Shown: positions 1,910 to 63,087 of the stretch, piece by piece
Layout: every line of letters begins with the position of its first letter
Numbering within the stretch: the stretch's first letter is position 1
Origin: a virus
Taxonomy: Duplodnaviria > Heunggongvirae > Uroviricota > Caudoviricetes
Length of the DNA: 64,000 nt
Strand: one strand, 5' to 3'
Virus record (IMG/VR): IMGVR_UViG_2541047860_000002
Translations under genes and position numbers: made by a program
Notes under the pieces: generated by a model
Database searches by the model: none
What the model was told of the DNA's origin: nothing
The model's input: only the letters and a program-made list of their open reading frames with translations

Positions 1910-2003
1910 ACGAACATAGCCCCTTCATAAGCAATGAACCAAAGGAGAGTATGCTCAGTTTGTGATTTCCGTTGTTCTTCCCCCAAATGCGGGGGAAGAA
2001 TTA

Positions 2004-2849
2004 TTAAACAGGTTGAAGGTGGTAATCCAAAGGCCACGCATCGAGTGGGGTTACATCAAGATGTAATTGCTTTTCTGCCGTTCGGTTCGGTATGGCGTTA
2101 AGAGAAATATTGTCTACCTGGCAGGAGGTATCACTACGGGATAGCACATCAGCCATACTCTCAGTAACATAAACACCTTCAATTACCGAAACATCCGTAG
2201 ACAAGCAATTTAGTATTTCTGCCACTTCAGGGAATACAGCACTAAGCCGAAACGAGACGCCATCAAAAACAATATGCAATGGCAACAAAGGGGCTATTAC
2301 TGTTTCGAAGTCAGATAACAATTTCTGCACAGCCGCCTCTTTATCCTGCTCTCCATATGAGCGATATAGCTTGTTCTGATCAACAACGACCAGCCCCCTT
2401 GATGTCAGGAAGAACTCACCGAATTGAGCCTGTGCCGTAGGTATTTCTATTTCGGTCGCAAAATATGAACCATAGGGGTGTTTTTCTATATTTACAGGTG
2501 CATACAGCGGTTCCCAACTAACAGGAATACAACCGAATTCACGCCAGAATGTCTGCTCAATTGGCAAGATAGTGCCTTTAAAGTGCACTTCATCTAAACG
2601 TTGTGCCAGCAGCATTGGCCTACGAGCCTTATCTTTTTCAGTGATAACGAAAAAACGCCCGTATTCAGCAATGCGGGCATCCATATCCTCACTGTCCATA
2701 GTGAAGAAGGATTTTCTGTTACTTATTCTTGTTAATATTGGTTCTACTGCCTCATTCCAGACATCCTGTAAAGCGTCTATAAATGCACTCCAGAGATGTG
2801 AATCCTGTTTTACTTTAGTTAATCGTTCCTTAAGCCAATTATCTTTCAT
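2004..2849 (-). CDS. Hypothetical tail/baseplate protein
   Basis: 281-aa ORF co-oriented in morphogenesis block. Confidence 0.4.
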   Translation of the reverse strand: MKDNWLKERLTKVKQDSHLWSAFIDALQDVWNEAVEPILTRISNRKSFFTMDSEDMDARIAEYGRFFVITEKDKARRPMLLAQRLDEVHFKGTILPIEQTFWREFGCIPVSWEPLYAPVNIEKHPYGSYFATEIEIPTAQAQFGEFFLTSRGLVVVDQNKLYRSYGEQDKEAAVQKLLSDFETVIAPLLPLHIVFDGVSFRLSAVFPEVAEILNCLSTDVSVIEGVYVTESMADVLSRSDTSCQVDNISLNAIPNRTAEKQLHLDVTPLDAWPLDYHLQPV

Positions 2850-2859
2850 GCTAACCTCA

Positions 2860-4290
2860 TTACGGGTAAGAAATACTGAACGTTGAAGATTTCACGTCAA
2901 GATAAATGAAGTCATTAAAGTAAACTGCATCTTTCATATTTTGTATTGTTATGTCATAAGAGAGAAACATATCCAGCGACTCTATTACTCGCCAAATATC
3001 TTTAACTTTTACCTGTGCATAACATTGCTGAGAATCATCATCACTCTGTAGTAATAAACTGAATGATGACGAATCACGACCAAAATTATCTTCCAACGCT
3101 GCTTTAATAGCATTTTGAGCGTCGTCTATCAGAACATTTTTACGTGCAATACCTGTAAATTTTATAGTAAATGGTTGTTCATTTGTATCTACATACTCAA
3201 ACCGCTTGTTCAACTCATTTGGAACATTCTCTAGAGCTTTCAGTATTTCTGATTTTAGCTGAGCCTGGCTTACACCTGGCTTATGTCCGCAAAAGAAAAT
3301 CTTGTTGATGTTTCGAACGTCAAACCCAGTTATTTTCTCTTGTAACGCTTCGCCCCAAACGTTCAACCATGAAGTTCCATGAACAACATTCTGAATGAAT
3401 TGGCGATAATCACCGCCCCATACCACTTGTTCATCGTATGCAACATAATACTGAGCACGATTTCGAGTTTCTTCTGTAGTTTCCATACCACTACCACCGG
3501 TAATGATCGAATCAGTTTTAAACTCTAGTGACTCCACATATTGAGCGATATTTCCAGCCGGTTCTAACTTTTGTCCTTCAGCCAAAGTATAGTCGCCAAG
3601 GCTAGCCATAACATCGATTCGAACCTGACAGCCTGCTGGAGGCATCATACCCATAGAACCATCACCAAACTTGACTCCTAGTTGTTCTGTAGGTTTATAT
3701 GCCAATGAATAGTGCTTACTCTTGTCTCTGGACATTCTAAATAATGGGTTATATGTCCATTTTTCTTCTACGCCATCTGTAATAACATAAACATCCAGGC
3801 TGGAGACTTCTTTTGTTAACTCTCTGGAAAGCAACAATGTCAGAAATAAAGTTTCCTTCTCAATATCAAATGTAACGCTAACAGCTTCATGCTGTTTAGT
3901 TTCTACGCCAGAAACAGTTCCTCCAGCAGGAATTACAACACTATTAATAATTGCCAAAGGTGTTTGGTCATTGGCAAGCAATTCAGCCCCGGCTGGTAAC
4001 GTAATATCCCGATCAGTTTTATTAGTTATAGACGTTGTTCCGTATGAAGCACTAACAAATCGCCCTACGTAACTACGGTCTTCAGCAACCGCTAAAATAC
4101 TTGAGCGGCGCGTAGCCGTTGAAATAAGTCCCTCAGTGAGGCCGCGGCTTGCAAATGTACGAGCAATATAAATAAGCTGTGATCCGAATATAGCGTGCAT
4201 CTGCACAAACTGACTATTTACAAATCGTGACCACCATGTGTTTTCATTTAACTTAGCGTTAAATTTATCCAGTAATTCTGTAATCGTCAC
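2860..4290 (-). CDS. Baseplate protein, gpJ-like
   Basis: 476-aa ORF; size, position next to gp25-like gene and overall resemblance to baseplate J family. Confidence 0.5.
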   Translation of the reverse strand: MTITELLDKFNAKLNENTWWSRFVNSQFVQMHAIFGSQLIYIARTFASRGLTEGLISTATRRSSILAVAEDRSYVGRFVSASYGTTSITNKTDRDITLPAGAELLANDQTPLAIINSVVIPAGGTVSGVETKQHEAVSVTFDIEKETLFLTLLLSRELTKEVSSLDVYVITDGVEEKWTYNPLFRMSRDKSKHYSLAYKPTEQLGVKFGDGSMGMMPPAGCQVRIDVMASLGDYTLAEGQKLEPAGNIAQYVESLEFKTDSIITGGSGMETTEETRNRAQYYVAYDEQVVWGGDYRQFIQNVVHGTSWLNVWGEALQEKITGFDVRNINKIFFCGHKPGVSQAQLKSEILKALENVPNELNKRFEYVDTNEQPFTIKFTGIARKNVLIDDAQNAIKAALEDNFGRDSSSFSLLLQSDDDSQQCYAQVKVKDIWRVIESLDMFLSYDITIQNMKDAVYFNDFIYLDVKSSTFSISYP

Positions 4291-4661
4291 GCGCCCACCC
4301 CACTTGATTTCTGCATAACAATATCCATGCTCCCACCTTTCGCATAAAAACTAATTAATAAAGAATCTTCAGAAATTGATGTGCAACGAATCCCCTCCAC
4401 ATCCAAACCTGGCAAGTCTTGTCGTAGTTTTTTCATCATTCTCCCTTCAATAGCCACTTCAACTATGTGCGAAGTTTCAGAGCCGAATGGTTCATGCTTA
4501 AATTCTTCCATTGGATTCCCCCAAGAGGGTAAACCATAAACACTCCCTTCAGGGGTTCGTAGCCACTCGTCAAGTCGGGCCATCCATGCTGCGGTACTTC
4601 CTTCTGCAATAATGACACCGCTCTCATTCGTTTGAAGTCTTGCGTCTATTTCATAAAGCAT
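4287..4661 (-). CDS. Baseplate wedge protein, gpW/gp25-like
   Basis: 124-aa ORF overlapping downstream gene start by 4 nt; size and context. Confidence 0.45.
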   Translation of the reverse strand: MLYEIDARLQTNESGVIIAEGSTAAWMARLDEWLRTPEGSVYGLPSWGNPMEEFKHEPFGSETSHIVEVAIEGRMMKKLRQDLPGLDVEGIRCTSISEDSLLISFYAKGGSMDIVMQKSSGVGA

Positions 4662-4666
4662 CTGTA

Positions 4667-7600
4667 TTAATCCTCAAGCAGAGCATCCAGCGACGGGTCA
4701 TTAATAGTTGTGCTAGCACGTGGTCGCGGTTGCGGCTGCGATGTTTTGACAACCTTATCCGGATCGCCTTTTGTATTGTTCTTGTTCACATTCAGAAGGT
4801 CGTTCAGGATAGAGCAGATGTTATCCAGCGCCTTCAACATAGCAGGATCGTTATTTATAGTGTCAGTAGTTAATGGTTGTCTTATTCCGCTTCGTGCGAG
4901 ATCTGTTACAGTAGGAAGCTGTGGTGGCATAGCAAGAAAAGGTTCTTGCACGGCTGACGCAGAGCCAAATATGGCATTATTGGCTTCGTTTGATATACCT
5001 CTAATGCTATCTGCGGTTTGTTGAATACCATTATTCAGCCAACTACCGGCGCTCCTGGTAAGCGGGCTAATAGCCCTAGCAATTGTTGAGTTCTGCCCAG
5101 TAGCCTGATAAACCAAATCATTAACAATGCCAGTGCCATCTACCCCACCAATAAGTCGTGAAACGTTATCGCCAATTGCAGGTAACACAGCAGAGCTAAT
5201 ACGTTTCAGACCTGTTAATGACGAGTCAAACAAAGAGCCAAGCACCCCCTTATCTTCACCATCAATTACCTTGTATCCATTGTCATAAACTGGAATCCCC
5301 CTTGAGTTTACAGAGATTTTTTCACTCTCACTTGCCGAAGAAACACCGGAAAGAAGATCCACTGAAGGCATATCGCGTTCAGCTTTTGGTCTTTTTTGTA
5401 AAGCGTCTCTTATATCAGTTACCTGGCTTGCTTTTTGAAATCCAAAAGATTTACCGGTTAAGCTGGATATCTTTTCAGTAAGAGCCTGATCCATTCCTTT
5501 CGCTTTTTCGGAAAGCGAAGATATAGAACCAAACGAAGTCGCCGACGCAAAATCCTTAATCAGGCCAAGGCTTGTACCAGCAAGGCTGGTAGCCGCACCT
5601 CCAAATAAATTACCTACCCCGCTGTCATTTATAGCGATTAATCTCTCAAGCAGACTTGATGGCGAGCCAGTATTAACATCAACATTCTCTGGATTAATCG
5701 GTTGCGATTGATTGCCTGTTTTTTGTGGCTTTTTGACTGCCTGGGCATGTTGTGCAACCTCAATTGGCTGTTGTGTTGCTGTCGGAACGGCATTCAAAAC
5801 TGGTTGAGCTGGAGATTTTCCATTAGCATATTTTACCTTGCGACCAACACTATATTGCGAATTGCGGGCAATTAGCTGACCACCATTTTCTTTCTGAATT
5901 TTATTAATCCGCGCCAATGTTTCGTCAGAGAATTGTCCCTCCCATCGACCAGTGTTTGTGTTAAATGCCCCAAGAGCATTCTTTATGAACTCATTGTTAA
6001 CCGCCGGGTTTCCACCTTCTTTCGTCGCTATTGCACGAACTAATTGCGTCATAACCTCTGGGTTGCTGACGTCTATTTTTTCATTAGGCGAGACGCCAAG
6101 ATATTTGCTGACGTTATCAATATATTGATTAGTATTGTTCTCCTTTGGGGGTGCCCATTTGGAAATAATACTGGATACCGTCTGTAGCTTCTGATACCCA
6201 GCGGCGGCGCTGGTGCCGTTGTAATAGCTTGACACCTGGTTTGCCAGCGCCCTGATCCCTTCTTCAGGCGTGTTAAATCGCGCAAAACGTTGTTCACCTT
6301 TTGCATTTGGTGCTTCCAGCGCCGCCCCTTCCTGATTAGCGAAAACAAGGTTGCCGAGGTTATTATTCCGGTAATTGCGGTTTTTAGCGTTGCTGCCACC
6401 AATATTCAGATCCGCTGCAATGGTGTTGCTGGCAGGGGCATTAAATTCAGCCGGGGAAGTATACCCGTGCTCACCAACACCATCTTCACCATCACGCCCG
6501 CCTTGTAGCTGCTCACCTAAAGAATGAATCGCATCGACGGTCTTCTTGGTGCCATCCTCAACCGCTTTTTTTACTTGTTTCGTGTTTTCGTCAGTGGATA
6601 AAAATGTATCCTTAAGGCTACCAAAAACAGATTTGGTGATATCTACTGCACCGTTAACACCACGAGCAATATCTCCGGTATCAAAATTCTGAAGTTTTTC
6701 ACCAGCTCTTTCAAATCCTAGCGCAGAAATTCCTTTCCCTATCAAGTTTGTTGCGCCCGACACCAAGCCCCCCATATCGAGCACATTAGCTGTTGCGTAA
6801 GCCGTTTTTTGCTGTTCGGATACAGCATCATCGTCACTTAAACCAAAGGCTGCCTTTTGCGCCTCTGTATCTGTGTAACCATCTATGGCGTCATATCCAG
6901 CCATTGCCAGCGAACCGATGATAGGGACCGCTCTTGCCGCTGTGGATGCTGCTGATTTAACACCTATTTTTGCAGCACTTTTGAGGGCTACAGATTCAGT
7001 TTTTTTCTTTGCAATGGCTTCGCCGGTTTTAATGGTAGTATCTTCAGCCACAACACCAGCTGACTTCACGGCCTTAGCAGTATTTTTTGTTTCCTTTGCA
7101 ATCCCCTTTGATGTATCGCTGATAGTGCTTACATCTTTGGGTTTGCTGATCTTATTTTTAACTGCTTTGGCTGTTCCGACACCAGTGCCAGCTGCAGCGC
7201 TACCGGCAGCAACTTTTTCGCCAACGGAGAGTGCTTTTTTCCCAAGATTGCGGCCTTTCCTTTTCGATTTGTTCCGTTTATTTTTTCCCGCCCGATCACC
7301 AATATTGATTTTATTTCTTCTGCTTGCTCGATTTTTCCAGAGATCACTTAAGCCGAACTTATTTCCAGAAGACACTGATTTCCGAAGCTTAACTATCTCG
7401 TCAGAAACATTTTCCAGACCATCAATTATTTTGTTGTCATTGGTCTGAAGGATTTTGGTTTGCTCTTCTACTGCTTGTGCGGATTTTGTCTCAACAGCGT
7501 TATTGAACGCTTTTGCAGATGTTGATTTTTGAGAATTCACCGCCGCCGGATAAGTAATTACTGGTGATATCGCTTTCGAGGTTGATGTTTCTTTTTTCCC

Positions 7601-20706: not shown

Positions 20707-20972
20707 TCTTCACCTCCTGGTTATCCTCCTATTGTCATCACTTTGTTATTTCGTCATTCAAACGGAGAGTTAAATTTCGGAATATTTTTGTATTCTCAAT
20801 TCATTCGCAAATAAATCTCACTATCAGCCCATCATTCAGTGGGTGATTAAGATATTCTCAAAATAAACTCAACAAGCGCTCTTTTTTGTCTCGTTTGGTG
20901 TGGATTTTTGGGGGCTTCTCTTTTAAAATTACATTTTGATTCTCAAATGTGTCTCAGAAGTGGAGCAAGAAG

Positions 20973-21929
20973 ATGCGCATTTTTATCGATGATGGTTCAA
21001 CCAATATCAAAATGCTGTGGGAGCACGACGGGGAAACTCGCACTCACATCAGTCCTAACAGCTTTAAGCGCGGATGGTCAGCAACATTTGGTGCTGGCAA
21101 GCCGTTTAACTATGTCATTGACGACGAAAAGTATTCGTATGATTTGATCTCGCCAGATGTTCTGCCGACGAATAACGTGGAATGGCAATACAGCCCGCTT
21201 AACGTCCTGGCTGTTCACCATGCCCTGCTGACAAGTGGCATTGAGCCGCAGGAAGTAGAAATTGTGGTCACGCTGCCTCTGGCGGAGTTTTACGACGACG
21301 ACGCGCAATACAATCTCGATAACATCGAGCGCAAGAAAGCCAGCCTTATGCGCCCCGTCACGCTGAATAAAGGCAATGTGTTCACGATTAAGAAAGTTAC
21401 GGTACGCCCGGAGTCTATTCCGGCAGGAATTGGCCTGTGCGACAATCTGAACCCTGCCCATTCTGTTCTTATCGTCGATTTGGGTGGAACTACCCTTGAT
21501 GTTTCAATGGTCGCCGGGCAAATGACGGCAGTTTCCCGTGTTTTTGGCGATTCAAATCTTGGCGTCTCTCTGGTTACCAGGGAAGTAAGGCAAGCACTTG
21601 CCAGAGCCAATACCGAAACGTCAAATTACAATGTCGATCAGCTCATTATTAACCGCCACGATGAAGATTATCTGAACGACAATATCAATGACCCATCAGC
21701 GATTGGTGATGTGAAAAAGGCCATTGCCGCAAGCATTGACCGTCTGCGTACCCGCGTTCTTGATGTGATTGGCGACTTTAAAGGATATACGCATGTCATG
21801 GTGATCGGTGGTGGCGCACCGCTGGTGGCAGATGCAATTCGCGAGCAAGTTAATATTCGTGATGACCGTTTCTTCGTGGCGGATGACCCGCAACTTGCTC
21901 TTGTTCATGGCCTGAAAGCAATCGGTTAA
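20973..21929 (+). CDS. parM: Plasmid segregation actin-like ATPase ParM/StbA
   Basis: MRIFIDDGSTNIKM, ISPNSF, VAVHHALLTSG, IIDLGGTTLD and GYTHVMVIGGGA motifs closely matching ParM; GGAG 7 nt upstream of ATG 20973. Confidence 0.85.
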   Translation: MRIFIDDGSTNIKMLWEHDGETRTHISPNSFKRGWSATFGAGKPFNYVIDDEKYSYDLISPDVLPTNNVEWQYSPLNVLAVHHALLTSGIEPQEVEIVVTLPLAEFYDDDAQYNLDNIERKKASLMRPVTLNKGNVFTIKKVTVRPESIPAGIGLCDNLNPAHSVLIVDLGGTTLDVSMVAGQMTAVSRVFGDSNLGVSLVTREVRQALARANTETSNYNVDQLIINRHDEDYLNDNINDPSAIGDVKKAIAASIDRLRTRVLDVIGDFKGYTHVMVIGGGAPLVADAIREQVNIRDDRFFVADDPQLALVHGLKAIG

Positions 21930-21936
21930 CGAGGTA

Positions 21937-22281
21937 ATGTCCATGTCTCAGGAACGTAAGAAAGTGATGATTTATCTTCGCCCAGAGGCTTATGCCAATG
22001 AAAAGGCGGCGAGCGAGAAGATAAAAAAACATAGCGATATGGCAAGAACCGCATTGTTGGCAGGGCTTGCGCTGGGAGAAGTCGATAGCAGGCTTCCAGG
22101 ATTACTGGCTTCTCTGCTGACCGAAGATAATAATCCGGAGCTGATCCGAAAAATGCTGGCATCCTTCCTGGAACTACCAGCTGCGGTTGAGGAGCGCCCT
22201 GCCTCCATTGAGCCAGTGAAGGAGCAAGTTGTTGCCAAAAGCGCGTCGGCGCGCAATCTGGCTGACTCTCTACCTGATTGA
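21937..22281 (+). CDS. parR: ParR-like partition adaptor (RHH)
   Basis: 114-aa ORF immediately downstream of parM. Confidence 0.55.
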   Translation: MSMSQERKKVMIYLRPEAYANEKAASEKIKKHSDMARTALLAGLALGEVDSRLPGLLASLLTEDNNPELIRKMLASFLELPAAVEERPASIEPVKEQVVAKSASARNLADSLPD

Positions 22282-22319
22282 CAGAAGATGTGCTGGTTTA
22301 AGGCTGCAAATTGCAGCCT

Positions 22320-22420
22320 TTTTTATACCTTAATGGTGCCTAATTGGTGTTAATCTGGCACCAGTTAGGTGCTGTTATGGTGCAATTTTGTATCTGGTTC
22401 CAATTTGGGGCTGATTTCGT
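22320..22420. repeat. Centromere-like repeat cluster (GGTGCNC / CCAATT elements) upstream of parA
   Basis: TGGTGCCTAATTGGTG, TGGCACCAGTTAGGTGC, TGGTGCAATTTTG, GGTTCCAATTTGG. Confidence 0.45.
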
Positions 22421-22568
22421 GTTAAATAGGATGCAATATAAGGTGTATTTGGTCTGATTGATGTTATACTTTGCCAAACATTCATGACTCCATTATAGAG
22501 CCTGTCCCGCATCAAAAAGGCTCTTATCTGGAACCGTTTTGATACCAAAATCACACCGAGGAACGGAT

Positions 22569-23210
22569 ATGATTATATTGGTAGTCAGCCAAAAAGGTGG
22601 CTGTGGAAAATCAACCACAAGCGTAAACATCTGTGCGGAGCTTGCCCGCGCAAATAAGGATGTAGTGTTACTAGATGCAGACAAGCAAGGAACAGCTGCC
22701 CGCTGGGCAGCTGACCGTAACACGGCAGAGGTTTCTCCTGTTATTCATTGTGTCCAGAAGTTTGGTAATATTCGAGAAACACTTCTCGATCTGGATAAGC
22801 GTTATGAATTTGTAGTTGTTGATACAGCCGGGCGCGATAGCAAAGAGATGCGTACAGGCATAACCGCTGCAGATATTGTGTTGGTCCCATTCAGACCATC
22901 TCAACCAGATTTAGACACGCTGGCACACTTTGTTGAAGTGTTTGAAGAGGCTTTGGACCTGATGCCTAATCCTAGCATTAAGGCGTTCGCAGTCTTAACA
23001 ATGGCCCCATCCAATCCGGTTGTGAATGAAACTAATGAGGCCAAAGAGTACCTGGCTGAATATCCGCAACTGAAGTTGCTGAAAACCATCATTCGTGATC
23101 GTAAGGTTTACCGCGATTGCATGGCTGAAGGGAAGGGCGTTGTTGAGATGGACAACGGGAAAGCTAAAGGTGAAATCCAGATGTTGGTTAAGGAGTTATT
23201 AAGTGATTAA
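22569..23210 (+). CDS. parA: ParA/ParF-type partition ATPase (type Ib)
   Basis: Deviant Walker A KGGCGKST near N-terminus; ORF track start trimmed to MIILVVSQKGG. Confidence 0.8.
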   Translation: MIILVVSQKGGCGKSTTSVNICAELARANKDVVLLDADKQGTAARWAADRNTAEVSPVIHCVQKFGNIRETLLDLDKRYEFVVVDTAGRDSKEMRTGITAADIVLVPFRPSQPDLDTLAHFVEVFEEALDLMPNPSIKAFAVLTMAPSNPVVNETNEAKEYLAEYPQLKLLKTIIRDRKVYRDCMAEGKGVVEMDNGKAKGEIQMLVKELLSD

Positions 23211-23490
23211 GCCTCGTAAATCGGTAAAAGCCCCCGAAGTAAAAGACCCCGATCTTGAACGCCGAATTGAGGATTTTGCCAGTAAGGCTGATTTGGTGCC
23301 GGGTGAGCAACCAGAAGACAACAAAGTGCTCGATAAGGACGCTCCACGTGATTTTAAATCTATTCGTGTTGGTTTCAATGAATACGAGTACCAAGTACTT
23401 GATGCGTTAAGTAAAAAGCATAATCGCAGCAAATTGAATATGATCCGCCATGCTATCCTCATGTTAGCGGAGTCTGAGGAAGCAAAATAA
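23203..23490 (+). CDS. ParG-like small centromere-binding protein
   Basis: 95-aa ORF overlapping parA stop. Confidence 0.5.
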   Translation: MIKPRKSVKAPEVKDPDLERRIEDFASKADLVPGEQPEDNKVLDKDAPRDFKSIRVGFNEYEYQVLDALSKKHNRSKLNMIRHAILMLAESEEAK

Positions 23491-23524
23491 AGTCTTTCAG
23501 GTTGGTTTTAGAACTTAAAAAGTC

Positions 23525-23590
23525 TTGAACCAAGGTGTACCAATACACCACTAATTTGGTGCACCTTTACATCCTTTTTGGTTCCAATTG
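23525..23590. repeat. Second centromere-like repeat cluster downstream of parG
   Basis: GGTGTACCAATACACC palindrome, TTTGGTGCACC, GGTTCCAATTGTGTACC. Confidence 0.45.
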
Positions 23591-23757
23591 TGTACCATTT
23601 ATCATTAATTTACTTATGCGCAAAAGTGGGCTTCATGAAAAAGCTCATTATTGAAATAACGATAGAAAGCAATTTCTAATCAACTAGTGGTTGTCAGCCT
23701 ATTCGGCTTATAAGATCATACGCTGTTATACGTTGTTTACGCTTTGAGGAATCCACA

Positions 23758-25419
23758 ATGAGTGAGGCAGAAGCCCGCCCGACTAACTTTATTCGTCAGA
23801 TCATCGATGAAGATCTGGCCAGTGGTAAGCACACCACAGTACATACCCGTTTCCCGCCGGAACCGAATGGCTATCTGCATATTGGTCATGCGAAATCTAT
23901 CTGCCTGAACTTCGGGATCGCCCAGGACTATAAAGGCCAGTGCAACCTGCGTTTCGACGACACTAACCCGGTAAAAGAAGATATCGAGTACGTTGAGTCG
24001 ATTAAAAACGACGTTGAATGGTTAGGTTTTCACTGGTCTGGCAACATCCGTTACTCCTCCGATTATTTTGACAAACTCCATGCCTATGCTGTTGAACTGA
24101 TCAACAAAGGCCTGGCGTATGTTGACGAACTGACGCCGGAACAGATCCGCGAATACCGCGGCACCCTGACGCAGCCGGGTAAAAACAGCCCGTACCGCGA
24201 CCGCAGCGTTGAAGAGAACCTGGCGCTGTTCGAAAAAATGCGTGCCGGTGGTTTTGAAGAAGGTAAAGCCTGCCTGCGTGCGAAAATCGACATGGCTTCG
24301 CCGTTTATCGTGATGCGCGACCCGGTGCTGTACCGTATTAAGTTTGCTGAACACCACCAGACTGGCAACAAGTGGTGCATCTACCCGATGTACGACTTCA
24401 CCCACTGCATCAGCGATGCGCTGGAAGGTATTACGCACTCTCTGTGTACGCTTGAGTTCCAGGACAACCGTCGTCTGTATGACTGGGTACTGGACAACAT
24501 CACCATTCCTGTTCACCCGCGCCAGTACGAATTCTCGCGCCTGAATCTGGAATACACCGTGATGTCCAAGCGTAAGCTGAACCTGCTGGTGACCGACAAG
24601 CACGTTGAAGGCTGGGATGACCCGCGTATGCCGACCATTTCCGGTCTGCGTCGTCGTGGTTACACTGCGGCTTCTATTCGTGAGTTCTGCAAACGCATCG
24701 GCGTGACCAAGCAGGACAACACCATTGAGATGGCGTCGCTGGAATCCTGCATCCGTGAAGATCTCAACGAAAATGCCCCGCGCGCAATGGCGGTTATCGA
24801 TCCGGTGAAACTGGTTATCGAAAACTACCAGGGCGAAGGCGAAATGGTCACCATGCCGAACCATCCAAACAAACCGGAAATGGGTAGCCGTCAGGTGCCG
24901 TTTAGCGGTGAGATTTGGATCGACCGCGCCGATTTCCGCGAAGAAGCTAACAAGCAGTACAAACGTCTGGTGCTGGGTAAAGAAGTGCGTCTGCGTAATG
25001 CTTACGTCATTAAGGCTGAACGCGTGGAGAAAGATGCCGAAGGCAATATCACCACCATCTTCTGTACTTATGACGCCGACACCTTAAGCAAAGATCCGGC
25101 AGATGGTCGTAAAGTGAAAGGCGTTATTCACTGGGTGAGCGCGGCACATGCGCTGCCGGTTGAAATTCGCCTGTACGACCGTCTGTTCAGTGTACCGAAC
25201 CCAGGTGCTGCGGATGATTTCCTGTCGGTGATTAACCCGGAATCGCTGGTGATCAAACAAGGCTTTGCTGAACCGTCGCTGAAAGAAGCGGTAGCGGGTA
25301 AAGCATTCCAGTTTGAGCGTGAAGGTTATTTCTGCCTCGACAGCCGCCATTCTACGGCGGAAAAACCGGTATTTAACCGCACCGTTGGGCTGCGTGATAC
25401 CTGGGCGAAGTTAGGTTAA
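23758..25419 (+). CDS. glnS: Glutaminyl-tRNA synthetase
   Basis: 553-aa class I aaRS with HIGH (HIGHAKS) and VMSKR motifs and full-length enterobacterial GlnRS-like sequence; own promoter region and terminator. Confidence 0.95.
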
Positions 25420-25446
25420 TAGGTATTTCGCCACATGAAAAAGTAA

Positions 25447-25469
25447 ACGCCGCTACTGCGGCGTTTTTT
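25447..25469. terminator. Bidirectional rho-independent terminator between glnS and dam
   Basis: ACGCCGC-TACT-GCGGCGT hairpin with flanking A and T tracts; dam stop codon lies in the T tract. Confidence 0.6.
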
Positions 25470-26373
25470 ACTTCATTATTGCAATTATATCGTTAGCAAC
25501 TACACGTGTTGACGCCTTGCAGGAAACCGACCGTCTGGCTGCCATATGATGTACTTTAAACCCGTTTCCTTCATATAGTTCACGGATGTTTGGAGCACCA
25601 CTATTTGTAATCACTACCTTAGCGCCGCGCTGGTGGGCTTCCACCAATAGAGATACCAGCCGTTTCTGTTCGTCGAAACGGAAGCTATTTCCTGAATAAC
25701 TGGTAAACCATTCTGTATCCGGCAGCGGTTCATACGGCGGATCGCAAAAAATCACATCGCCTTCACCAGCCGCCTCGATGACGCCAGCAAAGTCACCTGA
25801 TACAAAGGAAGTGTTTTTGAGTACGTCATCAGCCAAAAATGCCTCCATCTCTGCATGTGGGAAGTAGGGCGCTTTGTATTTACCATACCCTACGTTGAAC
25901 TCGCCATTTTGGTTGTACCGTGTTACGCCATTAAAACAGTGCCGATTAAGGTACAAAAAGGCAGCAGCATGATGTAGTTGGTCATACTTTCCTCTGTTAA
26001 ATGCCTCACGCACTTCGAGGTAAGCGTCAGCGTTGTTGTAATTTTGGAAAAAACTATATGACAGCGTGACTAGAGAATGTCTTTCTCGCTGCAATGTCTG
26101 ATAGAAGTTAATCAAGTCACCGTTAATATCATTAAGCAGGTTGTGGCGAAATCCTGCATTCGTAAATACGGAACCGCCACCAACGAATGGTTCTATTAAC
26201 CGCTTACCGTGTGGTAGATGCTCAAGCACTATAGGCAACTCTGAAAATTTACCGCCTACCCATTTGAAGATCGGACGCTCGTATTCATCCGGAGTCCGAA
26301 TGGTGCGCATATAGCTAATTTCCGCCATCGAATCATGTCTTTCTATGGCTGTGCTTACTAGAGATTTACTCAT
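25468..26373 (-). CDS. dam: DNA adenine methyltransferase (Dam family)
   Basis: FKWVGGK and DPPY motifs; start set to ATG 26373, which overlaps the upstream stop (ATGAGTAA). Confidence 0.8.
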   Translation of the reverse strand: MSKSLVSTAIERHDSMAEISYMRTIRTPDEYERPIFKWVGGKFSELPIVLEHLPHGKRLIEPFVGGGSVFTNAGFRHNLLNDINGDLINFYQTLQRERHSLVTLSYSFFQNYNNADAYLEVREAFNRGKYDQLHHAAAFLYLNRHCFNGVTRYNQNGEFNVGYGKYKAPYFPHAEMEAFLADDVLKNTSFVSGDFAGVIEAAGEGDVIFCDPPYEPLPDTEWFTSYSGNSFRFDEQKRLVSLLVEAHQRGAKVVITNSGAPNIRELYEGNGFKVHHMAARRSVSCKASTRVVANDIIAIMK

Positions 26374-27016
26374 AGAGCACCCCCTTATTTGCTTCGAAAA
26401 CTGCTTTTGCGAATCCATTCGGAGTAGCACTTCGAAAATTAGCCCTTTCAGGCCCAGGTGGCGCGGTATGGATTCTGTTATCTGGCTTGCCTAATGATTC
26501 GTCCATTAGGGCATCAGGCATGACAAAGCCCTGCCCGCTCCAGAGGCATGTTTTTTTGGTGTAATTGTCTTCCTTGCAATATGCAGTGAAGTGGTAAGGA
26601 TGGAAGATGTGATCAGGTTTACGCCAGAATGTCGATATTTGGCTGACCGGGTTTTCAATCATGTACGGGCAACCAATCATCTTTGCAATGTCGTAACACT
26701 GCCAGACGACTTGCATCGCTTTGAACTGGAAAACCGGATCTTTGTCAGCCTTATGTGCAAACCAGCGCGCACCGGAAACAGCAAGGTCCGTGCACGGCGG
26801 AAAACCAGCTAAAAACACAATACGTTGTAAATTATTTCGGAGAAAAGCATAAACTTCATCACTATCGATAATCGCACTGATACGTGTCAGAACTGCGCCT
26901 GATTGCATCAGCTCATCTGTGGTCTTTGCGTGTTGTGGATCGACGATAACAGCATCTATACCATGCTCCAGCCAGGGGGCGACCATTTTCCCCGTGAAAT
27001 CACAAAGACTCACCAT
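26366..27016 (-). CDS. C5-cytosine DNA methyltransferase-like protein
   Basis: GFPPCTDLAVSG (PC motif) and MIENPV (ENV motif); degenerate motif I; start trimmed to ATG 27016 just after rdgC stop. Confidence 0.5.
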   Translation of the reverse strand: MVSLCDFTGKMVAPWLEHGIDAVIVDPQHAKTTDELMQSGAVLTRISAIIDSDEVYAFLRNNLQRIVFLAGFPPCTDLAVSGARWFAHKADKDPVFQFKAMQVVWQCYDIAKMIGCPYMIENPVSQISTFWRKPDHIFHPYHFTAYCKEDNYTKKTCLWSGQGFVMPDALMDESLGKPDNRIHTAPPGPERANFRSATPNGFAKAVFEANKGVLYE

Positions 27017-27029
27017 AAGAGGTCTATTG

Positions 27030-27935
27030 TTAACGTTCTGCTTCACCACCAACGGCCTCCACCAGCGAAGTGAACATCGCTGATAATTCAGCAGTAAACA
27101 GGATAAAGTCAGCGTCAAATCGTTGAGCAACATCCTCTCGATCAATATCGTCGTTCTGGTCGTACAATTCGTCGCTGAACGACAAAGCCTTGATACTCAT
27201 ATCGTCATTCAGTCTGAAAAATGCACGGTCTTGCCAGTTAACCGCAACTGTGGTTGCAACCTTACCAGCTTCTATATGACTCATGATCTCGTCGGATAGC
27301 AGGTCCACTTTTTTGCAGCGGACCGCGCCGCCATCATCAAGCAATGCTTTTAAGGTCGCTTCCTCACCGGCACGGAAACCGTTCGGGAAGCCATTTTTAA
27401 TCCAGCCAGTGATGGTCAGTTCTAATGGGTCTTTCGGAGAGAAGGGGACAACGGGCAAGCTGCCAAGAGATTTCCGTAACAAAGCCAGCTGATCCTCTGC
27501 TTTTTTAGCACTGCTCGCCTCGACAAAAACCAGATGATTGCTTCGGTCTATCAGGATTTTAGCGACTGATTTTCTCGTGAAAGCACGAGGAAGAAGAGAG
27601 TGAAGCACTTCATCCTTCAGCGAATCTTTTTCGGTCTTCTTCAGCTTTCTGTCTTGTTCTTCTTCAAGTTTCAGGATTTTTTTCTGTAGCTCTTCTTTGA
27701 GCACTTGAGAAGGTAGGATTTTTTCCTCTCGTTTATGCTGTATCAGAAGAAAACCCTTGTATTCATGGGTGAGGTTGTCGCCAAGGACGGGGGTCCAACC
27801 AGCTTTAGCAATATCCTGAGAACCGCATGGGGTAAACACAAACTTGTTAAGGGCAGCATTTACTTCTGCGGTATCCCAGTTAACTTCGCGTGAAAGACGA
27901 TAGATGAAGATATTTTTGAAAGCGACTGATCTCAT
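27030..27935 (-). CDS. rdgC: Recombination-associated protein RdgC homologue
   Basis: [52 protein letters not shown] and [19 protein letters not shown] blocks match RdgC, divergent from host copy. Confidence 0.85.
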
Positions 27936-38829: not shown

Positions 38830-38940
38830 AGCTACCGCGTGAGGTCTCAATCTCAATGGCGGTAGCACTGGCTGGGTTGAGACTACCGGCGCAAAAGGGA
38901 ACCGGCCTGCCTTTCGGCAGCCCAGCCAGCACTACCATTG
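38830..38940 (-). ncRNA. Candidate structured leader / antisense-type RNA upstream of icd-ant
   Basis: Nested inverted repeats: GCTACCGC/GCGGTAGC, and GGTAGCACTGGCTGGG (38861-38876) pairing 14/16 with CCCAGCCAGCACTACC (38921-38936); no ORF. Confidence 0.25.
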
Positions 38941-39112
38941 ATCTTGGAGCTATACGCTACGTATGGCTGTGCGATGGCATGACACAAAAAAAGACGCTTT
39001 CGGCGTCTGTGTCGCCTTTTGCATTATCCGGGGTCTCAATCCCGGCACCCGTTTTTCTAAGGTGCCGTAGAAATATACCCCACGATAATGCCAGGGCGCA
39101 ACAGTCAGTATT

Positions 39113-60811: not shown

Positions 60812-60887
60812 TGGTGGCCCCTACCGGACTTGAACCGGTGACCGTGCGATTATGAGTCGCCAGCTCTAACCACTGAGCTAAAGGGCC
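60812..60887 (-). tRNA. tRNA with CAU anticodon (Ile2 lysidine-type or Met; resembles enterobacterial ileX)
   Basis: Manual cloverleaf: acceptor GGCCCTT/AGGGGCC, D-arm GCTCAGTGGTTAGAGC, anticodon loop CTCATAA, T-arm ACCGG-TTCAAGT-CCGGT, 3' CCA. Confidence 0.7.
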
Positions 60888-61041
60888 AGATTACTGTTAA
60901 TTCCGCTTACGCTTTTTGCCAGGACCGCGTAAGGCTTTTGCTGCTTGCTCGACCCCATATGCAACCACCAGCAGAAATAAAAATGTCCACCAAGGGTTCT
61001 TGTCGGCAAACGTCCAAAATTCCATCATGTTATCTATTTGG

Positions 61042-61869
61042 TTATTTCACCGGAACAAACGGAACAGCGGTATTACTGGTCATATACTGCGGTAGCGTTC
61101 CGTTCCATTTGTTGATCGCTTCCAACTCCATAACGCCGGGGTTCTGGCGCAGAGCCTCACCGCGTAAACGAATGGCATCAGCTTCAGCCTGGGCTTTTGT
61201 GCGAATGGCATCGGCCTGTCCAGCAGCTTCTGCGCGCAGCATGTTGGCTTCTGCTTCGCGTTGCTTGACTTCCTGCTCGCGTTGCAGAGTTTTCTGGTTC
61301 GCCGTGACTTTGGCATTAATGCTGTCGATAACGGTTGGCGGGTACTCCGGCTTGCCCACATATGAGAGGCTCATTACCTGAATACCGATGGGCGTCATTT
61401 CTTCCTGAATGTCTTTAAGGGCTGCATCAAGCAATTCAGATTTGCCACCGTCGATAAATTTGTCGGTGGTCATTTTGCTGGCTAACCGGTTCAGAGCATC
61501 TGCAACCTTCTGGCGTAGATCGGTATCAGTAATATCATCTACACCTTTGCGATAGGTCTGAAATACCGTTGTGACTTTTGCTGGATCAACCTTGTAGGCT
61601 ACGCCGATGTGGTAACCAATGGTTGTTCCGTCGCTCATCTGGAAGCTGAACGGCTCATCGTATGTCTTCATTTGCTTAAAGGTCGGGAAGATATAAACTT
61701 CAGTATTCAAGCCTGTCCAGTAGCGACCAACGCCAACTACTTCACCGATACCTTTATCATCCCCCAGCTTATTTACTTTGATCCCTACGTTACCTGGCTC
61801 TACCCGATCGCATCCGGTCAGACATAAAGAACCAAAAATAATCGCTGCACTAATCAACGTTTTTTTCAT
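61042..61869 (-). CDS. SPFH/band-7 domain lipoprotein
   Basis: Signal peptide with lipobox LTGC; stomatin/prohibitin-like core and Ala/Glu-rich coiled-coil tail. Confidence 0.65.
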   Translation of the reverse strand: MKKTLISAAIIFGSLCLTGCDRVEPGNVGIKVNKLGDDKGIGEVVGVGRYWTGLNTEVYIFPTFKQMKTYDEPFSFQMSDGTTIGYHIGVAYKVDPAKVTTVFQTYRKGVDDITDTDLRQKVADALNRLASKMTTDKFIDGGKSELLDAALKDIQEEMTPIGIQVMSLSYVGKPEYPPTVIDSINAKVTANQKTLQREQEVKQREAEANMLRAEAAGQADAIRTKAQAEADAIRLRGEALRQNPGVMELEAINKWNGTLPQYMTSNTAVPFVPVK

Positions 61870-62086
61870 TAATCAATTTCCTGGTTTTTTCACGAAAAAA
61901 GACTACTGCAAAAGCCGGGTAAATGAGCGCGAGAAGGACTCCCAACAATACAAGTATTGTGCTGTCAGATGAGATCATATTTGGCAAAAGCCAAACATAC
62001 AGAACCAGTGACACAATCAAACAGAGGACGACATAAATATATAACCGCACCCATAGCGTTCGACATTTGTTCGGATTGTTCTGCAT
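61850..62086 (-). CDS. Small two-TM membrane protein, overlapping start of SPFH gene
   Basis: 78-aa ORF, two hydrophobic helices. Confidence 0.4.
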   Translation of the reverse strand: MQNNPNKCRTLWVRLYIYVVLCLIVSLVLYVWLLPNMISSDSTILVLLGVLLALIYPAFAVVFFREKTRKLINEKNVD

Positions 62087-62349
62087 CCTCTCACTCCATT
62101 ATTTACCGAATAAAAAAGCTGCGGTGCCTGGTGCCTCCAGGTGACGTTAACCAGTTAACAATTAACGCCGGGATGTTTGACTTAACCACTAAGGAGGATT
62201 GTTTTAACTGTTCCGCGTGCGCTTAGCCGCATTCACCGCAATGGTAAGAGCACTTGGCTGGCTGGGCGGCGATGACGCCTGTACGCATTTGGTGATCCGG
62301 TTCTGCTTCCGGCATTCGCTTAATTAGCCAAATACTCTTAACGTTGCAC

Positions 62350-62436
62350 TGGCGGAGAGTAATGGAATCGAACCATCATCGCTTGCGCAATGGGACGGTT
62401 TTCAAGACCGCTTGAGCACCATGCTCCCTACTCTCC
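62350..62436 (-). tRNA. tRNA-Ser(UGA)-like, type II (long variable arm), atypical D-arm
   Basis: Acceptor GGAGAGT/ACTCTCC, anticodon stem-loop GCGGT-CTTGAAA-ACCGT, T-loop TTCGATT, 3' GCCA. Confidence 0.4.
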
Positions 62437-62838
62437 AGTGATTGTGATGGTCGGTGCTGAACTCCGACACAGGGTTGTAGCAAGCCCCGCAAAGCGCGCA
62501 CTACTGTAGTTGCGGCACATCAGCCTGTGCATTCACCACAATGTTGAGAACACTGGTTGTCACGCTGCAACGCAACATTTATTCATAGATTGGGATATGA
62601 CCCCGTTACGCCAGTGTTCTCAACGTTGTGGTGCCGGTTACGGTTCCGGCCAGGCCTCTTCCTCAACGGGGTGTTCTCCATACGGACTACCGTTTATTGG
62701 TCGTTCCTGCGGTTTATGTTGTGAAGCCAGATGCTTATCTTCTGGTTGCTTCAAAGAGCTGCACTTCATCACAACGGTAAGAGCACTCGATGCATTTAAG
62801 CCAAGCCCCATAAGGGAGAATGCCCTTACCTGTTGTGT

Positions 62839-62914
62839 TGGTGCCGGTTAACGGACTCGAACCGCTGACATCCTGCTTACAAGGCAGGCGCTCTACCAAC
62901 TGAGCTAAACCGGC
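62839..62914 (-). tRNA. tRNA-Thr(UGU)
   Basis: Acceptor GCCGGTT/AACCGGC, D-arm GCTCAGTTGGTAGAGC, anticodon loop CTTGTAA, T-loop TTCGAGT, CCA. Confidence 0.8.
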
Positions 62915-62918
62915 AATT

Positions 62919-63005
62919 TGGTGGGGAGTGATGGAGTCGAACCACCCGAGTCGCAATGACAGTAGATTTACAGTCTACCCCGCTACCCCTACGGACTAAC
63001 TCCCC
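62919..63005 (-). tRNA. tRNA-Tyr(GUA), type II
   Basis: Acceptor GGGGAGT/ACTCCCC, anticodon stem-loop GTAGA-CTGTAAA-TCTAC, 15-nt variable arm, T-loop TTCGACT, CCA. Confidence 0.6.
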
Positions 63006-63010
63006 TAAAT

Positions 63011-63087
63011 TGGCGATGGTGGGTGGATTCGAACCACCGACCGACAGCTTAGAAGGCTGCTGCTCTATCCTACTGAGCTACACCATC
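63011..63087 (-). tRNA. tRNA-Arg(UCU)
   Basis: Acceptor GATGGTG/CACCATC, D-arm GCTCAGTAGGATAGAGC, anticodon loop CTTCTAA, T-arm GGTGG-TTCGAAT-CCACC, GCCA. Confidence 0.75.

Follow-up and report, generated by a model that had tools for sequence, protein, structure and literature searches.

glnS between a partition locus and a methyltransferase gene

The stretch of DNA analysed here (the window; 64,000 nucleotides of IMG/VR virus record IMGVR_UViG_2541047860_000002) carries on its plus strand, at positions 23758 to 25419, a 553-codon glnS gene for a glutamine--tRNA ligase (GlnRS). An earlier note made from the sequence had described a full-length, host-like glnS between a partition locus and a methyltransferase gene, and our analysis agrees: the open reading frame lies between a gene pair encoding a ParA-type ATPase and a small protein on one side and a convergent dam gene on the other. 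The protein scores 1067 bits against the TIGR00440 glnS model (cutoff 425.8), with positions 1–524 of the 524 in the model matched, and its Pfam domains (PF00749 at residues 28–337, PF03950 at 340–439 and PF20974 at 456–528) indicate the class I architecture of GlnRS, a catalytic Rossmann fold plus two anticodon-binding β-barrel domains. Residue-by-residue alignment with the crystallised E. coli enzyme (PDB 1o0b) finds the HIGH motif and VMSKR (the E. coli GlnRS form of KMSKS) unchanged, five conservative differences (V97I, Q106K, I112V, D510E and V552L), and the terminal E554 absent; I97 and V112 are also present in other enterobacterial chromosomal GlnRS proteins. The note's further observation of higher GC and more enterobacterial-looking codon usage than in the neighbouring genes is borne out. 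GC is 0.51–0.54 along glnS and 0.39–0.48 in the flanks, and the gene as a whole (GC 0.526, GC3 0.609, preferred-codon fraction about 0.73, rare codons 0.4%) differs from those adjoining it (GC3 0.41–0.52, preferred-codon fraction 0.46–0.57, rare codons 1–11%). Judged by its sequence, the glnS copy is confirmed as intact and of host type.

The partition assignment upstream of glnS is softer. The ParA-type ATPase scores 162 bits against NF041546, below the cutoff of 180, and the 95-codon open reading frame that follows it (23203–23490) has no match to ParG or any other family in NCBIfam, Pfam or the PDB sequences, so that the name parG used for it earlier reflects its position only. The octamer GGTKYACC is not significant as a simple centromere motif (9 matches where 5.4 are expected, with 9 reached in 11 of 100 shuffles), and the repeats of the supposed ParF/ParG-type cassette are suggestive only. 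The intergenic DNA 3' of the 95-codon frame (23491–23669) is element-derived and matches nothing in the E. coli chromosome. Within it a module of about 30 nucleotides at 23557–23591, shared with 22378–22407 upstream of parA, is a candidate partition or operator site. The window encodes five tRNAs (Met, Ser, Thr, Tyr and Arg). No tRNA-Gln was found in it, and we therefore rejected a partnership of glnS with a phage tRNA-Gln; the proposed link between glnS and the tRNA cluster found no support.

Boundaries of the captured fragment

Blast boundaries and alignments place the chromosome-derived piece at 23670–25415, about 1.75 kb. Its left end, where Escherichia chromosome homology begins (query 271/283), brings with it 88 bp of captured DNA upstream of glnS (23670–23757, plus strand). 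Within this a promoter scan predicts a sigma-70-type promoter, TTGTCA-17 nt-GATCAT (23691–23719, plus strand), whose –10 hexamer holds a GATC (23714–23717) that in the native glnS promoter is the Dam site. The promoter is kept in every copy compared by alignment, and its GATC in all plasmid and chromosomal copies examined; Plumbridge and Soll described Dam-dependent repression of glnS in 1987, a finding that PMC12369378 cites and reproduces. A Shine-Dalgarno sequence, GAGGA (23746–23750, plus strand), stands 7 nucleotides upstream of the ATG, as it does in chromosomal copies.

At the right end, chromosomal homology stops about 4 nucleotides before the stop codon, and as a result the protein ends in AKLG* where the chromosomal form ends in AKVGE*. 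The DNA beyond this junction (25416–25444) leads into a predicted bidirectional intrinsic terminator (25445–25469) common to glnS and the convergent gene. Its stem (25445–25466) has 9 bp, 6 of them G-C pairs, with a T-run on either strand and a fold of –20.6 kcal/mol (z = –5.0), and it differs from the terminator of chromosomal glnS. The convergent Dam-family adenine methyltransferase gene (25468–26373, minus strand; TIGR00571, 248 bits) probably starts at the ATG at 26373, and its stop codon at 25468–25470 falls in the terminator T-tract, just as the note had stated.

Compared with E. coli glnS (b0680; PDB 1o0b, 1gtr and 1qtq), the window copy has the same promoter with GATC in the –10 element, Shine-Dalgarno sequence, domains and motifs, with 96–97% nucleotide and about 99% protein identity. 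It differs in the C-terminus, in the foreign terminator, in 17 clustered diagnostic SNPs at nucleotides 87–369 that part the plasmid allele from chromosomal glnS, and in the changes V97I, Q106K and I112V; the chromosomal context nagE-glnS-chiP is absent around it.

A cargo gene of D6-type phage-plasmids

The D6 genome was reportedly described by Gilcrease and Casjens in 2018, with glnS annotated there. The D6 annotation has this gene as orf62, with the same junctions and in the same gene order as the window: orf60-orf61-orf62(glnS)-orf63(dmt)-orf65(rdgC-like). D6 and D6-like plasmid prophages such as pYU39_89 share with the window the gene, its position, promoter, AKLG* C-terminus and terminator; over the 2,151 bp spanning both junctions D6 and the window are 98.2% identical, and their glnS genes differ only allelically, by 31 synonymous and 2 nonsynonymous differences. 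In PLSDB, a junction-spanning query is matched in one piece over at least 80% of its length by 105 plasmid records, and window positions 23400–25550 find a single-piece match of 100% coverage in D6 and in about 100 best-covered of these 105 records. The hosts of the roughly 105 carrier plasmids are E. coli, Salmonella and Shigella, and a set of 5,426 complete E. coli genomes yields 81 plasmid matches; among 50,697 phage records no P1-type phage other than D6 matched. Of the origins that the note had entertained, a lineage-specific capture is the right one, both junctions being conserved along with the gene in D6 and about 105 related plasmids. The note had also allowed that glnS might prove to be ordinary cargo if close relatives carried it; essentially this is the case, and it is already published, a 2019 paper having reported glnS in all D6-like genomes (PMC6799933).

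The left junction GAAAGCAATTTCTAATCAACTAGTGG and the same terminator are present even in pEF-4, the most divergent carrier, which argues for one single capture of glnS. The empty site is marked by sister elements without glnS, in which about 135 bp separate the 95-codon frame from the methyltransferase gene that converges on it. Some D6-group elements thus lack glnS.

IMG/VR contains further GlnRS matches at 48–55% identity. One record at 85% identity (L010) was set aside as a phage-borne GlnRS, since the gene adjoins a chaperone-usher fimbrial operon and hence lies in chromosomal DNA at the edge of a prophage.

Age of the capture

P1-family phages are generalized transducers, and the sequence and codon usage of the gene are host-like, which would fit a gene acquired recently from its present host by transduction, or else a chimera made in assembly; the note had raised recent transduction and a chimera. 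We give either one practically no chance. The chimera is refuted by the recurrence of the same junctions in D6 and in more than 100 independently assembled plasmids, which equally contradicts a recent pickup. Chromosomal glnS genes sampled from 5,425 E. coli genomes reach only 95.6–97.0% identity to the window copy, a divergence of 3–4.4% from every one of them; and plasmids in Salmonella carry the same Escherichia-type allele as those in E. coli, with 100% identity, whereas Salmonella's own chromosomal glnS is only about 84% identical to window glnS. These two observations exclude recent transduction and point to an old single capture. The element-specific C-terminus and terminator also speak against a recent pickup. 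A GTDB species scan returned E. ruysiae as the sole Escherichia species and does not extend to the chromosomal alleles of E. fergusonii, E. albertii and E. marmotae, so that the donor is named here at the level of the genus.

A signature of purifying selection, and exchange with the chromosome

All 14 good-quality copies examined have an intact glnS, and dN/dS is 0.01–0.04 in all informative pairs. Three other records show a frameshifted gene, none of which we accept as a pseudogene: MK356557 has 83 indels within the gene and is an uncorrected long-read assembly, CP042632 is visibly error-rich (57 annotated features on 94 kb), and CP088384 differs by one extra A in an A5 homopolymer run. Synonymous divergence of glnS (dS 0.07–0.24) is far below that of the adjacent parA, 95-codon frame and rdgC in the same elements, for which dS exceeds 0.8, is saturated or is not computable. 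glnS is thus a low-divergence island within saturated flanks, and by this contrast it marks a boundary between exchangeable modules.

Plasmid and chromosomal glnS have also undergone patchwork gene conversion. In its 3' third the D6 allele resembles K-12, with 6 differences where the window allele has 27 (Fisher p = 5e-4 and 2e-7), and seven further alleles (vr5, vr6, vr7, vr9, vr11, vr13 and pRL465) have chromosome-type bases in contiguous runs at plasmid-diagnostic sites. The 5' diagnostic block at nucleotides 87–369, with its three amino-acid changes, persists in most plasmid alleles. Because the variation that conversion brings in from the chromosome is already purified, such conversion could both depress the apparent dN/dS and repair lesions in plasmid glnS without direct selection on that copy.

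Discussion

Taken together, these findings are best explained by a working second copy of an Escherichia glnS that was captured once by an ancestor of the D6 group, is kept under purifying selection and still exchanges tracts with the chromosome; we put the probability of this reading at roughly 80%. The ancestor, a P1-family phage-plasmid, would have taken the gene from an Escherichia chromosome into a site flanked by the partition operon and the convergent methyltransferase gene. The fragment would have brought the native promoter and ribosome-binding site and reached to the last few codons, and the gene would now use the element's own bidirectional terminator. Transcription is presumably from the gene's own sigma-70 promoter with its Dam site within the –10 element, and the product, virtually the host enzyme, would charge host tRNA-Gln. 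Lysogens would then have a raised dosage of GlnRS, raised further during lytic replication. Once in place, glnS would have stayed as fixed cargo, subject to purifying selection and still trading short tracts with the host's chromosomal gene. Our preferred guess, with cysS of plasmid pBT1 as the parallel, is that the benefit lies in host fitness or in plasmid retention through supply of an essential enzyme.

The pBT1 case suggests a stronger version, in which the plasmid GlnRS becomes the main one, the chromosomal copy is down-regulated and loss of the plasmid is penalised. In Salmonella Typhimurium D23580 the pBT1 cysS, likewise a plasmid paralogue of an essential class I aminoacyl-tRNA synthetase, is experimentally required, chromosomal cysS is repressed when the plasmid is present, and the gene has been proposed to be a maintenance device (PMC6333337); the same proposal was made for D6-like glnS by the authors of PMC6799933. 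The position of glnS next to the partition loci fits such a role, as does the conjugative Citrobacter cronae plasmid p.S175-1.4 (NZ_CP060445.1), on which cysS and a full-length glnS stand side by side beside higBA. That glnS was captured independently, as it has other junctions, 86% nucleotide identity and a conjugative backbone of type MOBP/MPF_I. The pair indicates that genes for aminoacyl-tRNA synthetases turn up repeatedly on plasmids of enterobacteria. The parallel with pBT1 has its limits: pBT1 is not a phage-plasmid, unlike the D6-type elements, and its cysS is 79% identical in nucleotide sequence to the chromosomal gene, whereas D6-type glnS is 96–97% identical and known from sequence alone. 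By sequence counts chromosomal glnS is there in essentially all genomes (5,428 chromosomal places in 5,425 E. coli genomes), with nothing to suggest its loss from carriers, which speaks against a takeover, although the same is true of pBT1. Plasmid and chromosomal glnS moreover have the same promoter, which leaves no visible mechanism for differential expression, and two toxin-antitoxin systems are already present on the element according to PMC6799933. We consider a takeover of this kind possible but rather unlikely.

The conversion tracts would also fit a neutral passenger that stays intact only because the chromosome repeatedly converts it, its main effect being to provide a patch of homology that drives recombination. 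The clear mosaic, with the K-12-like 3' third of D6 and the chromosome-type runs in other alleles, favours such a passenger, as does the low dS of glnS beside its saturated neighbours. A homology patch of this sort goes with the exchange of par and rdgC flank cassettes between elements and with occasional recombination with the chromosome. Conversion, however, cannot act in Salmonella at about 84% identity, yet the copies there are intact and identical. The diagnostic 5' block persists in most alleles, promoter, Shine-Dalgarno sequence and reading frame have all been kept where the flanks are saturated, and a phage genome limited by packaging could be expected to shed a 1.7-kb insert that is not under selection. 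Neutral carriage seems to us improbable for these reasons. Plasmid-borne second copies of aminoacyl-tRNA synthetases are often inhibitor-resistant or self-immunity enzymes, such as mupirocin-resistant IleRS or the LeuRS that gives immunity to agrocin 84. A function of that type is very unlikely here: glnS has neither the clear divergence nor the linkage to a biosynthetic or toxin locus that marks such enzymes, since its product and the sensitive housekeeping enzyme have about 99% identity and differ by conservative changes only, two of them (I97 and V112) found in other enterobacterial chromosomal GlnRS, and its neighbours are partition and methyltransferase genes.

The presence of glnS itself adds nothing new, having been annotated in D6 in 2018 and discussed as universal cargo of D6-like elements in 2019. 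New here are the glnS-less sister elements that mark the empty site, the low-divergence island and the patchwork conversion with chromosomal glnS. The questions that such cargo raises are modest: what makes a phage-plasmid maintain, under strong constraint, an almost exact duplicate of an essential host synthetase, and is there a general maintenance strategy behind the synthetases found on plasmids (glnS, cysS on pBT1, and cysS with glnS in Citrobacter)? As a speculation to which we give rather long odds, lysogens may depend on the element for GlnRS, as with cysS on pBT1, or the plasmid copy may offset repression of the chromosomal glnS promoter through methylation by the phage Dam enzyme. If either is true, 1.7 kb of near-identity would also give a transducing phage-plasmid and its host's genome a permanent place to recombine. 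The mosaic alleles show continuing exchange of sequence between a mobile element and the chromosome at an essential gene. This matters mainly for how glnS alleles are interpreted when they serve in typing or phylogeny, and for understanding modular exchange among P1-family elements.

Structure and boundaries of the captured gene

The window carries an intact host-type glnS gene of 553 codons (23758-25419, plus strand; ORF call and profile matches), whose product scores 1067 bits (cutoff 425.8) in a match that spans the entire NCBIfam glutamine--tRNA ligase equivalog. This product has a class I catalytic domain together with the two anticodon-binding domains. Aligned to the E. coli GlnRS crystal structure 1o0b, it shows five substitutions (V97I, Q106K, I112V, D510E and V552L) and lacks the final residue, and the HIGH and VMSKR motifs are unchanged. 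Its composition (GC 0.526, GC3 0.609, preferred-codon fraction about 0.73) is distinct from that of the adjoining genes (GC3 0.41-0.52, preferred-codon fraction 0.46-0.57). A G+C-rich hairpin with a 9-bp stem and T-runs on both strands (25445-25466; fold -20.6 kcal/mol, z = -5) serves as shared terminator for glnS and the convergent dam gene, whose stop codon (25468-25470, minus strand; ORF call) lies inside the T-tract. The earlier note had described such an ORF, composition, terminator and dam stop, and that observation is correct.

Homology to Escherichia chromosomes extends from 23670, 88 bp 5' of the ATG, to about 25415, some 4 nt short of the stop codon. The captured upstream piece brings the native glnS promoter, TTGTCA-17 nt-GATCAT (23691-23719, by promoter scan), together with the ribosome-binding site GAGGA. 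The GATC within the -10 hexamer is kept in every plasmid and chromosomal glnS copy examined. Plumbridge and Soll (1987), as cited in PMC12369378, reported that glnS is repressed when this Dam site is methylated, and in PMC12369378 a dam deletion raised glnS by about one log2 unit. At the 3' end AKLG*, or AKVEG* in pEF-4, takes the place of the chromosomal terminus AKVGE*, and the chromosomal terminator has been swapped for the element's own; PDB constructs of 539-548 residues suggest that the extreme C-terminus of GlnRS is dispensable for folding. The most divergent carrier found, pEF-4 of E. fergusonii, has the same left junction sequence and terminator as the window, which, as judged from these sequences, argues for a single ancestral capture of glnS.

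Neighboring regions

Upstream of glnS lie two tandem partition systems (20949-23490). In the first, a gene for an actin-type ParM/StbA protein (20949-21929; PF06406, PF21523) is accompanied by one for a Plasmid_stab_B protein (21937-22281); the second pairs a small ParA-type ATPase gene (22539/22569-23210) with a 95-aa ORF, labelled parG in the earlier note, for which profile searches found neither ParG nor any other family match. The parM gene hardly differs among D6-group elements (dS 0.04-0.13), whereas parA and the 95-aa ORF are saturated (dS >1), with a mosaic boundary between the cassettes at about 22300-22550, and thus the second cassette behaves as an exchangeable specificity module. 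The "centromere repeats" of the earlier note are only suggestive: a module of about 30 nt, TGGTGCA-N-TATC-(N)-TGGTTCCAATT, lies upstream of parA (22378-22407) and downstream of the 95-aa ORF (23557-23591), with a further occurrence at 22525-22541, and these may be partition or operator sites on either side of the parA/95-aa cassette. Similar motifs occur in a glnS-less E. marmotae plasmid (L107 6100-6200).

The methyltransferase region varies among relatives. The window (25468-27145, minus strand) and D6 have a Dam-family gene overlapping a 226-259-aa ORF that has no family match; plasmid p13ZX36-90 (L116 5069-7357) has a single fused 2,289-nt "Dam family" gene; and on the minus strand of the E. 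marmotae plasmid (L107 6227-8640) two ORFs overlap, one of 461 aa that is Dam-like in its C-terminal part and one of 353 aa that differs in sequence. Elsewhere in the window, a C4 antisense RNA (RF01695, 76 bits) adjoins an isrK-like RNA (RF01394, 59 bits) at 38855-39065 (minus strand); this is the P1-type immI immunity region.

Distribution and age

Phage D6 matches a 2,151-bp stretch of the window across both junctions in one piece at 98.2% identity. Its orf62 is annotated "glutaminyl-tRNA synthetase, similar to E. coli GlnS" and is flanked as in the window, with the ParA-like gene and the small ORF at one end and, at the other, the methyltransferase gene together with rdgC-like and baseplate genes. 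Apart from D6, 50,697 phage records yielded no carrier save one unrelated weak match. A junction-spanning query is covered to at least 80% by 105 PLSDB records. Most are E. coli plasmids and some come from Salmonella and Shigella; almost all belong to replicon cluster 1704, are non-mobilizable and measure about 90 kb. A further search of 5,426 complete E. coli genomes gave 81 plasmid-borne matches. The recurrence of gene and junctions in D6 and the PLSDB records disposes of an assembly chimera and supports the lineage-specific capture proposed earlier. The gene is ordinary lineage cargo and already known, from D6 orf62 (2018) and a 2019 population study (PMC6799933), which cites the D6 genome paper, finds glnS in every D6-like genome, classes it as a moron and suggests speculatively that it could serve fitness or maintenance.

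Two plasmids, NZ_CP099353 of E. marmotae and NZ_CP104667 of E. coli, have the same synteny without glnS, and in the former only about 135 bp separate the small-ORF stop from the convergent methyltransferase stop. This state could be either ancestral or a clean loss.

The window gene shares 95.6-97.0% identity with the chromosomal glnS copies sampled across 5,425 E. coli genomes and 95% with that of E. ruysiae. On elements in Salmonella the allele is 100% identical, although a chromosomal glnS from that genus reaches only about 84%. The recent transduction-type acquisition also entertained in the earlier note is thus refuted, and these identities indicate that glnS travels with the element.

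Selection and gene conversion

Window and D6 glnS differ by 31 synonymous and 2 nonsynonymous changes, and dN/dS is 0.01-0.04 in all informative pairs, among plasmid copies and against chromosomes. All 14 good-quality phage and plasmid copies examined are intact (553-554 aa). Three apparent frameshifts, two in visibly error-rich assemblies and one a single homopolymer insertion, are most readily put down to errors in sequencing or assembly rather than pseudogenisation; the error-rich long-read assemblies NZ_MK356557.1 (83 indels within glnS alone) and CP042632.1 (57 annotated features on 94 kb) would, at face value, wrongly suggest the latter. Between the window and pRL465, pTB423, p13ZX36 and pEF-4, parA, the 95-aa ORF and rdgC are near or at synonymous saturation (dS 0.8 to >1), whereas glnS dS is only 0.07-0.24. 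Thus glnS forms an island of low divergence, and the modules on both sides of it are deeply diverged and evidently exchangeable.

Six diverse E. coli chromosomes all lack the majority plasmid base at 19 diagnostic sites, of which 17 lie in glnS nt 87-369 and include the three N-terminal amino-acid changes; outside this block plasmid and chromosomal alleles have one pool of polymorphism in common. Within the block, contiguous chromosome-type bases number 13 in allele vr9 and six each in vr5, vr6, vr7 and pRL465, with shorter runs in vr11 (four) and vr13 (three). The D6 allele is itself mosaic (Fisher p = 5e-4 and 2e-7), its first 1,050 nt being window-like (9 differences) and its last 600 nt K-12-like (6 differences from K-12, against 27 for the window allele). 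These patterns carry the signature of repeated gene conversion between plasmid and chromosomal glnS, so that some of the low dN/dS may have been imported and not selected in place, and the source lineage is narrowed only to Escherichia, the 5' block being atypical of E. coli. A search with 23670-25415 found 5,428 chromosomal matches in 5,425 E. coli genomes, one of which has three copies; a few chromosomes may thus hold a second glnS, possibly in a D6-type element integrated via glnS homology. One of the 5,426 complete genomes had no glnS match.

Possible function

Our additions to the published record are modest: exact boundaries for the capture, relatives with an empty site, a mosaic of gene conversion, and the contrast in divergence between glnS and its flanks. 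A synthetase for immunity or inhibitor resistance is unlikely, since the window GlnRS is about 99% identical to the housekeeping enzyme. A purely neutral passenger is also unlikely, because glnS and its promoter are retained across lineages with saturated flanks and in Salmonella too, where conversion should be inefficient. Since the locus is a self-contained cassette, with its native promoter and ribosome-binding site, an intact enzyme gene and a terminator, the simplest reading is that the element would supply an additional functional GlnRS charging host tRNA-Gln. The window encodes no tRNA-Gln; its tRNA cluster (60812-63087, minus strand) comprises Met(CAT), Ser(TGA), Thr(TGT), Tyr(GTA) and Arg(TCT), unlike the Asn, Thr, Ser and Met set of pYU39_89 (PMC6799933).

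The best precedent for a possible benefit of such an extra GlnRS is the Salmonella plasmid pBT1, whose cysS is required and in whose presence alone chromosomal cysS is repressed (PMC6333337). The MOBP/MPF_I conjugative plasmid p.S175-1.4 of Citrobacter cronae (NZ_CP060445.1, L118; locus 1923-7155) has cysS (3331-4722) side by side with a Citrobacter-type glnS (5488-7155), next to a higB/antitoxin pair (higBA). That glnS is 86% identical in nucleotides to the window gene and represents an independent case, reminiscent of pBT1; thus plasmid cargo of this kind recurs.
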